Source: Escherichia coli (GTDB taxonomy: Bacteria > Pseudomonadota > Gammaproteobacteria > Enterobacterales > Enterobacteriaceae). Taken from it: DNA of 35,570 nt. Below, piece after piece: positions 3,001 to 6,000 of this stretch (positions within the stretch are counted from its first letter, which is position 1; each line of letters starts with the position of its first letter). The position numbers were made by a program. The DNA is taken from assembly GCF_003334385.1 (NCBI RefSeq), contig NZ_QOWN01000045.1; one strand, given 5' to 3'.

Positions 3001-6000
3001 AGCTTTCTCCTTTTTAGGTAGTTAAGTTGTTACGAGTTGCAAGAATACAACATTAACAACTTTTATCACAACTTTTAGGTGTTGGAAAGCTAAAACATAA
3101 AGTTGTAACCTCATCAAAAAAGAGAGGGATATGTTGTGAAAACACTGGCAGAACGATTAAAGATAGGTAGAGAGAAAGCTGGCATGAGCCAAGCTCAACT
3201 AGCTGAAAAAATTGGACTTTCACAACAATCTGTAGCCAAAATAGAGAATGGCGAAACTCTACAACCGCGCAAAATTAAAGAAATTGCAAAAGTTTTAGGT
3301 GTATCACAAAAGTGGTTACAACTTGGTATTGAAGACAACGCATCCATACCTGATCTTGTTGTAAAAGAAGCAGAAAGCACCGCATTAGACCCCGATATTT
3401 TCGTAAACATTCCTGTTTTAGATGTCGAGTTATCGGCAGGTAACGGATGTCTGGCTGAAATAGTTGAATCAGCTATTGACTGGTTTCCGTTAAGAAGAGC
3501 AGATTTGAGAAAATCTGGCGTATGTGCATCTAATGCCAAGATCGTAAAAATATGGGGGAACAGTTTATTACCGGTTCTCAATAATGGAGATCTTGTTGCC
3601 GTTGATATTTCTCAAACCGTTCCTATTCGTGATGGCGATCTTTATGCCGTACGAGATGGTGTATTGCTAAGGGTTAAAATACTTATCAACTTACCTGACG
3701 GTGGCTTGATTCTTAGAAGCTTCAACAAAGATGAGTACCCAGATGAAATACTCACCTTTGAAGATAGACGAGCCAGAATTCATGTTATAGGTAGGGTATT
3801 CTGGTCATCGCGAACTTGGTAATGCATCGAAAAGCATTTCTTCAGAAATAATTTTAAGTTTTGCACCATTATCATCCCTATAAGATATAGCCTTTTCGAT
3901 CTTCCTTCCGTGACTTGAGAATTTCCAATCACGGGAGGAAAGCGTCCCAATTACTAAAAAATCCAACTTTTGAGTAATTCCACTACTGATGTTCCCACCA
4001 GCATTTTTAATCAAATTTTCAACTACGGCTCTCTTTCCTGCAACAAAAGTGCCTGTAAGACAATAGGTTTTACCCTCTAACTCTATCGAAGCCCCTACAT
4101 CAATAGGCAGCCTGGTCGCCAAACCATCCACCACCCCACTTTCCAAGTCACATCCTGTGAAGTCTACTAATGCCTTATGTAGAGTTAAACTCTCATCTTC
4201 AGTAATAACACCATCTTTAAGAATTTCCTTTACAAGTGCATAAAGTTTTTTTCCTGGGTAGTTGTTCTTCAAAGCTCCATTTTGCTCAAGCCACCAATTA
4301 AGATATCTTATTTCTTCTTGAGTTAAGCTCCGATCAGCAATTAATCCTTTACATAGTCCATTAAGTAAATGGACATCTACATCCTTGGAGTAAAAATCAA
4401 TTTCAGGGATATCAAGAATTTCCCTCTGTATTTGGAGAAGGCTATTTTTAAGGTCATCACGTTCTTCTGATGTGATTATTCCATCCGCAAGAATATCCGA
4501 CACCCGTGCTGATAGACTTTTTATAACTCCATTATTGATAATCTGCTTTGCTTCAAGTAACCATGTATCTAAGTAAAGAACCTCCTCTTCACGGACAACT
4601 CCATCTGCAATGATTCCATCAATGATGCTAATCAAGTTAGCAAATAACTTGTCCCGGTTCTGTGTGTAATTAAAAGCGTAAAGCGCGTCTTCCATACAAC
4701 CTCCTTTTTTTGATAATCCTTGCACTCCTTGGCTACTCGTTCAAACCACATAAAGTTGTTGACAACATTCAAAACCACAACTAAATTACAACTTAAAGGT
4801 GTTAAAACAACGAACAGGCAGGACGCCCACGAAGTAGCCGCCGGTGGCGTATGAATGACCGGATGATTCGTTAAATACTATGTGTAAGAGAGCGTAAATG
4901 AACCGTTATTTCACATGCTCGTTTTGTGGCGCAAACGAGCTGCAGGCAAAAAAAATCATCGCCAAAGGCGGAAAAGATGAAGTTGCTATCTGCTCTGAGT
5001 GCGTAGTCTTGTGTGTCGGGGCATTAATCAATATCAGCACAACTATTCAGTTCACACCAAATGAGAATGCGCCTTTAGATGCGCGGAAATCTGGAGGTTA
5101 AAGAACAAAATGAAAGTCCAGATTTTAAACAATAGTGGTGAAGTCGTTTGGTCATACGACATAGCCGCTCCTGTAGATCAGAGCGGCGATAGCTGGACCA
5201 ATGGGAAACATCAGATTATGGCTGGAGTTGTGTTCTCTTTACGCCGTGCTTTAGAACAGGCTGAAGTATTTCCATCAGACCCTGAATGGAAATGGCCTTT
5301 TTCTATTTGTCCAAATTCGGAGAGCACATTTCAGAAAATTGGTCAGAAAGTCGCACTCGAAGAGCATCAGCCAACTGTTTCCTGATTTTTTCAGGTAACT
5401 CGTCGGCATCGCAGAAACAACAACGCTCGATCATGTTGAAAGCCGATGCGTAGAACTGTTTCTGCTGAGTGTCGCTGAGACAGGAAAAGAGCGACGTTAC
5501 GATGATTTTATTAATTGCATTATCAAGTTCTTTTTCATCAAAAGTCATTTGATTTTCCTTTTATGTATACTGGCTTAAAAGGATACCACCGAGCCTGAAG
5601 TGGTGAAAAGACAGGCACATAACAGCTAAGTATTTTCAACCAGAGAGAATCCTTAGCGTTGTGGTGAATGCGGCTCAGCGCACGCGGGTTAAGGTTGAGG
5701 CTGACAGTCGACCTTCTGTGGATACCCACCCGTCTGGTGTGCAACCTTCGCCAGGCACCGGGAGGCACCCGGCACCACAACTTTATGCTGTGTGTAGTCC
5801 TGGCGGTACCAGTTTGTACCCTTGCTTCCGGCTGGTACCGTCCTTTTTACAAAACAGAGAAGAGCATCACCGGACGACGGGCTCATAACCCAATCCATCC
5901 GGGCGGCTGCCACCGCAGGTGTTCTTCTCTGTTTTGTGGAGAAACTAATCGGCCTTGCAGGGTCGATATGATGAGGAGCAGCAAAATGGCTAGCGAACGC

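Follow-up and report, generated by a model that had tools for sequence, protein, structure and literature searches.

A convergent overlapping gene pair behind the early-left promoter of an Escherichia coli prophage and its apparent membership of a family of swappable two-gene cassettes

Excludons and convergent genes that overlap are already known, as are accessory genes lying antisense behind the early-left promoter (pL) of lambdoid phages. Type I toxin–antitoxin loci with a convergent 3' overlap include txpA/ratA, bsrG/SR4 and fst RNAI/RNAII. The sieB genes of lambda, Rac and P22 are expressed in the lysogen, lie antisense in the pL operon and converge on its first gene or genes. In lambda, the convergent N and sieB genes meet end to end (ends at 35037 and 35036), and in Rac ydaG–ydaF face sieB, with a 4-bp overlap between ydaF and sieB. 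In P22, an antisense RNA and the cognate protein Esc enable escape from the phage's own exclusion protein (PMC12197685). The locus considered here is a pair of small convergent open reading frames (ORFs) in a prophage carried by a 35,570-nt stretch of Escherichia coli DNA (contig NZ_QOWN01000045.1, assembly GCF_003334385.1), referred to below as the window. Sequence comparison indicates that the pair belongs to a set of widespread, swappable two-gene cassettes that head the early-left operon of enterobacterial prophages.

The pair consists of two ORFs, here called A (the sense member) and B (the antisense member), and their shared end:

5110–5385, plus strand: ORF A, 91 amino acids (aa), ATG start, PHROG 3195
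5303–5548, minus strand: ORF B, 81 aa, ATG start, PHROG 3311
5303–5385, both strands: 3'–3' overlap of the two ORFs, 83 bp

An ORF listing returned these coordinates in agreement with the original prediction, which had described frames of 91 and 81 aa overlapping by 83 bp at their 3' ends, each with a plausible ribosome-binding site (RBS). The sites are AAGGA, 7 nt 5' of the ATG of B, and GGAGG, 12 nt 5' of the ATG of A, the latter overlapping the stop codon of a zinc-finger ORF (4898–5101). Because ORFs of 80 aa or more number 93 in the window, often nested in one another, the mere length or existence of the two frames is no evidence for either. In the overlap, codon position 1 of A faces position 1 of B, position 2 faces position 3, and position 3 faces position 2. 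PGAP/RefSeq annotates A alone in near-identical E. coli genomes, the SfV record also lists A alone (as orf33), and the record of phage vB_EcoM-720R4 lists B alone. Half of each cassette is thus routinely lost in annotation, because pipelines keep one gene, A in the case of PGAP and B in some phage records. Both proteins match their PHROG profiles over the full length (A to PHROG 3195, residues 1–91, E = 8e-64; B to PHROG 3311, residues 1–81, E = 5e-55); these are families without assigned function, which record only the annotation of such ORFs in phages.

Coding was assessed in nine loci from five lineages, including E. coli, Klebsiella, Salmonella and Yersinia, at 63–70% nucleotide identity. 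The module from ATG to ATG measures exactly 439 nt in all nine, with zero gaps in the alignment, and both ORFs are intact and convergent in every locus examined from these four groups. No other frame is free of stop codons across the nine loci, each of the others containing 13–59 stops in total. In the part unique to A (5110–5301), variation is clustered at the third codon position of A, and the ratio of nonsynonymous to synonymous change (pN/pS) is 0.35 in the plus frame (bootstrap 0.25–0.47). In the part unique to B (5386–5548), it is clustered at the third codon position of B, with a pN/pS of 0.28 in the minus frame (bootstrap 0.19–0.36). The periodicity changes from the plus to the minus frame between about 5290 and 5350; no three-base periodicity was seen at about 5275–5350, and the minus frame dominates from about 5350. 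Within the overlap (5303–5385), pN/pS is 1.10 in the plus frame versus 0.70 in the minus frame, a ratio that is unreliable in doubly coding DNA. Judged by these patterns, both ORFs are genuine protein genes under purifying selection, each in its own frame, because codon-level conservation is not confined to one strand. The original prediction had left it between two real genes and one gene with an antisense artefact, and had proposed a codon-level comparison to decide; frame-specific pN/pS and periodicity, with conservation on both strands, favor the former. The functional A protein probably ends near residue 65–80, because its stop position wanders across loci (91, 93, 122 or more aa) and the extension beyond 5385 carries no plus-frame signal, only minus-frame periodicity.

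The two genes are also inherited together. Protein searches found homologues of A at 57–68% identity, and a profile search found homologues of B in Salmonella, Klebsiella and Yersinia. Such divergent homologues were obtained through protein searches and contig look-ups rather than from two IMG/VR scans, which returned only E. coli-type copies (98–99% identical); an interruption of either ORF is rare across 156 E. coli-type IMG/VR loci. With tblastn, each ORF retrieves the same four phage records, corresponding to three distinct phages (SfV, 720R4 and SKA5). Remoter relatives, at 27–44% identity, keep the partner ORF in the same arrangement, the minus frame being open in loci L178–L180, and the two ORFs co-occur in every locus examined, distant ones included. 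The A family has 18 representatives among 1.84 billion proteins, and a scan of GTDB species representatives with the B profile gave no confirmed locus. A frameshifted version of A (P0023, P0025; 54 or 102 aa) is present on 126 contigs, some of them complete E. coli chromosomes. Consequently, the sense gene may be inactivated or mis-sequenced in part of the population, with the antisense region persisting.

The prophage in the window is lambdoid and SfV/e14-like, with tRNA-Thr/proA as its integration site. Two features place the pair relative to its early-left operon:

4748–4802, plus strand: pL-type promoter with words resembling the left operator (OL); TTGACA (4759–4764), 17 nt, TAAATT (4782–4787)
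4898–5101, plus strand: ClpX-type C4 zinc-finger ORF, 67 aa, the first pL gene here

The gene order runs from cro-side genes (minus strand) through cI (3136–3822, plus) and a BRCT gene (3805–4725, minus) to the promoter-like site at 4759–4787, which scores 10/12 in a promoter scan. This site is flanked by ACATAAAGTTGT (4748–4759) and ACAACTTAAAGGTGT (4788–4802). The 12-mer ACATAAAGTTGT is identical to 3095–3106 in the cI/cro intergenic region, and 4787–4802, which spans ACAACTTAAAGGTGT, is 81% identical to 3067–3082. The operator-flanked site at 4748–4802 is read as OL/pL on these grounds. A would then be a repressor-controlled early gene, since it lies downstream of a promoter with the operator words of the cI/cro region; and if this promoter is pL, B lies antisense within the pL operon. 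The order behind pL is a leader (4806–4872), the zinc-finger ORF, A, and then the genes from yfdP-yfdQ-yfdR to xis and int. In SfV and most divergent loci, A is the first gene behind the repressor terminator and a promoter.

What ties the pair to other loci is a short conserved sequence upstream of B. To the right of the B start, the nine loci are dissimilar except for one block, AAGGATACCACCGAGCCTGAAGTGGTGAAAAGACAGGC (5579–5616), and a predicted hairpin borders on it:

5579–5616, minus strand: conserved cassette element, 35–38 nt; the minus strand reads GCCTGTCTTTTCACCACTTCAGGCTCGGTGGTATCCTT
5556–5583, minus strand: Shine–Dalgarno hairpin, in which UCCUUUUA (3' edge of the element) pairs with UAAAAGGA (Shine–Dalgarno sequence of B)

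A degenerate pattern scan found the element at least 122 times in the fetched IMG/VR loci, and it is carried by 852 of the 5426 complete E. coli genomes, with 899 places counted in E. coli genomes. Among the matches listed, it falls in unannotated DNA in 12 of 12 cases and precedes about 34 small-ORF classes (59–163 aa, 13 families), with 28–45 nt, mostly 31–37 nt, between element and ATG. About 30 of these 34 classes have a convergent partner with a 3' overlap of 4–257 nt. The partners are associated by family: 28 of 56 pairs of classes within one B family share the A family, against 10 of 472 across B families (50% vs 2%). The window pair has the same composition, with the 35-nt element core (5582–5616) 33 nt before the antisense ATG at 5548 and a sense partner that overlaps its 3' end. 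In a locus with the same backbone (L200), the window's pair is replaced by a different pair in an identical layout, and in L026 a second cassette lies between the zinc-finger ORF and A. Ten other cargo proteins matched no characterised family and no PADLOC defence model. The original prediction missed that the two small ORFs belong to a large modular cassette family. Tandem double cassettes, each with its own element, were observed at L026 (2433–3516) and also at L050, L058, L079, L109, L115, L211 and L272; there a distance of 655 nt separates the two copies of the element, and the duplication takes in about 60 nt of sequence upstream of them.

The element itself admits two readings, as a promoter and as a structured RNA. 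It contains a sigma-70-like motif (TTTTCA, 18 nt, TATCCT or TATCTT, with TG before it), the only such motif consistently found, which occupies a constant position in 46 of 46 distinct contexts among the matches listed; sequence upstream of the element is unrelated across backbones. It also holds two interleaved complementary pairs, 5585–5589/5600–5604 and 5593–5597/5612–5616. Compensatory changes occur in two deviating lineages (ACCAC/GTGGT to ACCGC/GCGGT; GCCTG/CAGGC to GCCTT/AAGGC and to GCCGGG/CCCGGC), giving three compensatory pairs, a count that 0 of 500 shuffles reach; because few sequences vary, this covariation is thin. One change in the element yields a G·U pair on the minus strand only. 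In addition, folding predicts the Shine–Dalgarno hairpin, in which the last bases of the element (UCCUU...) pair with the Shine–Dalgarno region. The arms of this hairpin differ between cassette classes while complementarity is kept (CUUUUA/UAAAAG, CUUGG/CCAAG, CCUUC/GAAGG, CCUUGC/GCAAGG, CCUCU/AGAGG), and complementarity to the own arm exceeds that across classes (p = 4e-4). This was obtained with an anchored comparison of arms, RNAalifold on a MAFFT alignment having missed the hairpin with the arms out of register. The hairpin conflicts with the promoter reading, because the transcript must start upstream of the -10-like hexamer; alternatively, the hairpin may act on the pL transcript. Rfam holds no family for the element at 5579–5616, even at E up to 5. 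The hairpin at 5585–5604, flagged by a scan as a minus-strand terminator, was rejected as such since no conserved U-tract follows it in other lineages. In the SfV record, a "putative rho-independent terminator" (L003 3542–3574; record 25034–25066) overlaps the start codon and RBS region of the unannotated B, and it may be part of the B leader hairpin.

By layout and element, ymfJ/ymfI of the e14 prophage of E. coli K-12 is another member of the cassette family. The two genes lie directly behind the repressor gene, toward xis and int, and are convergent with a 3' overlap of 63 bp, compared with 83 bp in the window, and the element stands about 37 nt before the ymfI ATG with one mismatch in 35. 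The encoded proteins differ from those of the window: they have 102 and 113 aa, and homology of YmfJ or YmfI with either window ORF, in either pairing, was rejected (hhalign probability below 1%). Strand-specific RNA sequencing of uninduced K-12 gave 95.6 sense and 20.0 antisense reads per million (RPM) for ymfI, 154.6 and 1.0 RPM for the repressor gene ymfK, and 24.7 and 30.7 RPM for ymfJ, where antisense matches sense (PMC7373196 Table S1c). Duplexes cut by RNase III and captured with p19 cover ymfI at 113–199 RPM in four libraries (PMC7373196 Table S1b), and ymfI–ymfJ is among the listed convergent excludons (PMC12288877). On SOS induction, ymfJ rises late (log2 4.8) alongside other repressor-controlled e14 genes, and the YmfJ protein was detected (PMC11002266). 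Taken together, the e14 data fit an antisense gene that would be on in the repressed prophage and a sense gene that would come on with pL, their RNAs meeting. The original prediction had assigned both frames to the phage early region. This holds for A, which lies behind the pL-type promoter, and probably fails for B, which opposes pL, has its own conserved upstream element and has an e14 counterpart, ymfI, that is transcribed without induction.

The reading preferred here, with a probability of roughly 0.55, is that the two real genes form one cassette heading the pL operon, with opposed expression programmes and antagonism at the RNA level. While pL is repressed in the lysogen, B would be made from its own element-associated promoter or leader; once pL fires, A and the ClpX-type zinc-finger protein would be made. 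Since the transcription units collide and the RNAs are complementary, expression of A and B would be mutually opposed. Transcriptional interference from active pL, and cutting of the RNA duplex by RNase III, would lower B, and B transcription would in turn dampen leaky expression of A. In this scheme, B could be an effector expressed in the lysogen, such as an exclusion factor, and A an antidote made early, comparable to the SieB/Esc/sas RNA arrangement of P22. That the two proteins themselves are cognate antagonists is the most speculative step and is put forward only tentatively.

Several observations weigh against this scheme. All expression support comes by analogy with e14, and an interaction of the two proteins, or toxicity or protection on the part of either, is conjectural. 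In the same SOS data, ymfI is also up (log2 about 2; strandedness unchecked), which misfits strict mutual exclusion (PMC11002266). Pairing of A and B is not absolute: four different A families accompany the ECs1072-type B family, and among the long "A" partner ORFs some may be spurious. For B, no sigma-70 motif is consistent except the one within the element, and the start predicted from it omits the 5' arm of the covarying hairpin. The signal for which strand is functional is weak: 30 of 45 leaders fold more stably as minus-strand RNA (p = 0.008, sequences non-independent), and counts of G·U versus A·C in the hairpin arms are 11 to 10.

Three other explanations have to be considered. That only one strand codes, the other ORF being an antisense shadow held open by the codons of the real gene, is very improbable. 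Annotation does keep one ORF at a time (A in PGAP, B in the 720R4 record), and wobble-matched antisense frames do give shadow signals, with pN/pS values of 0.45 and 0.34 in one antisense frame. However, the overlap takes up only 83 of the 439 nt; in the rest, periodicity and low pN/pS are specific to the frame of the ORF concerned, and stops abound in the frames of the opposite strand. A shadow cannot account for non-overlapping coding stretches of 190 nt and 160 nt on opposite strands, and a single gene plus shadow can in effect be dismissed because the selection signals are non-overlapping and frame-specific. The remaining two explanations accept both genes. With the polarity reversed, the pair would resemble a toxin–antitoxin system in which A together with the zinc-finger protein does harm as an early factor of host takeover, and the RNA and protein of B safeguard the lysogen against leaky expression. 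Toxicity is common among the early pL genes of lambdoid phages, kil and kilR in neighbouring slots being examples, a transcript of B would be antisense to A, and the same architecture and co-inheritance apply. The data cannot separate this polarity from that of effector and antidote. However, neither protein matches known toxin or antitoxin families or is small and hydrophobic like type I toxins, and the reversed polarity is considered unlikely.

It is likewise rather unlikely that A and B are two independent accessory genes, with the overlap reflecting genome compaction and the element serving as a portable promoter and homology patch for cassette exchange. The sigma-70-like extended -10 in all 46 contexts among the matches listed would suit such a promoter, and mosaic junctions occur inside and beside the cassette (P0051, P0052; H72–H76). 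The wide range of overlap lengths, from 4 to 257 nt among cassettes, and an A–B pairing that is not one-to-one in every family would also be expected of unrelated neighbours. However, independence sits poorly with strict co-occurrence across lineages at about 60% amino acid identity and in the same phage records, with the strong association of A and B families (50% against 2%) and with the recurrence of a convergent partner in about 30 of 34 classes among the matches listed. The RNase III duplexes over the e14 cassette (PMC7373196) also argue against it.

The structures of both proteins were predicted, that of B with AlphaFold2 (AF2). B is predicted as a three-helix bundle (helices 5–22, 26–41 and 53–74) with a predicted local distance difference test (pLDDT) score of 84 and a predicted template modelling (pTM) score of 0.65. 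The model of A is weak (pLDDT 67), with two helices behind a beta-hairpin. Transmembrane-like helices are absent from both models, and a fold search gave no specific structural relatives of the B model and none of the A model. Neither ORF matched Pfam, NCBIfam or PADLOC (PADLOC-DB 2.0), and neither these collections nor the folds yielded a match pointing to an anti-defence or host-takeover role. A CCxC motif in B was rejected as a metal site, because distant homologues do not preserve it (RCCYC, HCRFC, QLYCC, HFYCV). The zinc-finger ORF matches the NCBIfam ClpX N-terminus (E 4e-6) and PHROG 5259, in agreement with the RefSeq annotation. In the window it is separate, 8 nt upstream of A; in L178 (2–664) a homologue of A continues in frame from a ClpX-type C4 zinc finger as one fused protein, which suggests a functional link between the two. 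In L245 and L264 the same zinc finger is fused to other sense-strand partners, and in P0064, P0065 and L251 the sense-strand protein is fused to an N-terminal "MEFKDLP" domain instead. Such fusions are a Rosetta-stone hint of joint action between the sense partner and a ClpX-N-domain-like module.

Two further features lie between pL and the zinc-finger ORF:

4806–4872, plus strand: conserved 65-nt non-coding leader element directly 3' of pL
4814–4830, minus strand: terminator-like hairpin with a T-rich tail, matched by a consensus scan only

In 53 temperate-phage records, unannotated DNA contains the leader at 82–98% identity. The genera represented are Escherichia, Shigella, Salmonella, Yersinia, Klebsiella, Citrobacter, Pectobacterium, Providencia and Aeromonas, and in the Yersinia loci L169 and L172 a copy stands to the right of the cassette instead. 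Its folding energy is ordinary (z = 0.30). A put-like or antiterminator-like role for it is a guess; its 17-nt core found no match in HK022 24–32 kb at up to three mismatches, and an identity with the HK022-type put is unsupported by sequence comparison with HK022. The hairpin at 4814–4830 is a possible end point of B transcripts.

Other features of the window stand further from the pair. Inserted between cI and pL is the BRCT-domain gene, whose 306-aa product falls in PHROG 3989 and weakly matches a PADLOC candidate system, PDC-S48 (E = 3e-7); the gene shares 18 bp with the end of cI. Directly after the cassette, the pL transcript contains a GC-rich stretch ahead of yfdP (5628–5850, plus strand) with a sub-threshold match to the STnc100 small RNA (41.2 bits against a gathering score of 47, E = 4.8e-7). 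The integrase ORF (8787–9950, plus) is followed by tRNA-Thr (9968–10040, minus), proA and proB, and the integrase/tRNA-Thr junction (8787–10040) marks the attachment site and one end of the prophage. Far from that end, a group II intron D1–D4 match (RF01999, 34007–34127, minus, 81.8 bits) adjoins a 378-aa ORF (32757–33893, minus). Three naRNA4 (CssrE) repeats exceed the gathering score on the minus strand, at 23855–23932, 24597–24674 and 27926–28003.

Taken alone the pair is ordinary, and its value is that it opens onto a modular system. A portable element that precedes 13 or more unrelated cargo families, most of them with cognate partners, has the look of a diversity hotspot for genes of prophage–host or phage–phage conflict. 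One possible generalisation, offered with more doubt than confidence, is that the head of pL holds undescribed modular cassettes, spanning 13 or more cargo families, each of which pairs an effector of the lysogen with an early antidote. In them, the antisense gene would stand under a shared structured leader (the 35-nt element with pseudoknot-like interleaved helices and the Shine–Dalgarno hairpin), and the sense partner, often joined to the zinc finger, would neutralise the antisense product on induction. If this were true, the window pair and the K-12 orphans ymfI and ymfJ would represent a new type of self-immune exclusion or addiction module. The idea can be tested directly in the standard laboratory strain K-12, because e14 ymfJ/ymfI has the same element and layout, and such work would yield the first functional handle on these long-standing orphans. 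The shared element, the breadth of cargo families and the recurrent cognate partner found no description in Rfam, PHROGs annotations, NCBIfam, PADLOC or targeted literature searches.

The comparison with described systems defines what the pair shares and where it departs. Type II toxin–antitoxin systems were rejected as a class for it, since its genes are convergent rather than co-directional and lack toxin or antitoxin domain matches. Type I loci resemble it in having convergent units with complementary 3' ends in prophages; they combine a non-coding RNA with a small hydrophobic peptide, whereas the window pair comprises two conserved, predicted-soluble proteins. This class was rejected as well, both strands coding for conserved proteins without a transmembrane-like helix. 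Excludons share the convergent overlapping coding regions and, through the e14 cassette, overlapping transcripts with RNase III-cut duplexes. However, they are defined by transcript overlap, and not by a portable element or swappable cognate pairs, and the window pair is known from its coding overlap. With the sieB systems the likeness is one of position, B occupying the same slot, antisense in the pL operon. The conserved element was not found in the Rac prophage, and B has no match among SieB-type families in PHROGs, NCBIfam, Pfam or PADLOC. SieB is a membrane protein of about 160–190 aa, whereas B is an 81-aa protein predicted to be soluble and helical. In contrast to P22 esc, no in-frame Esc-type product is evident at the window pair; and unlike in the sieB systems, the partner that opposes B in the window is a separate protein gene overlapping its 3' end.

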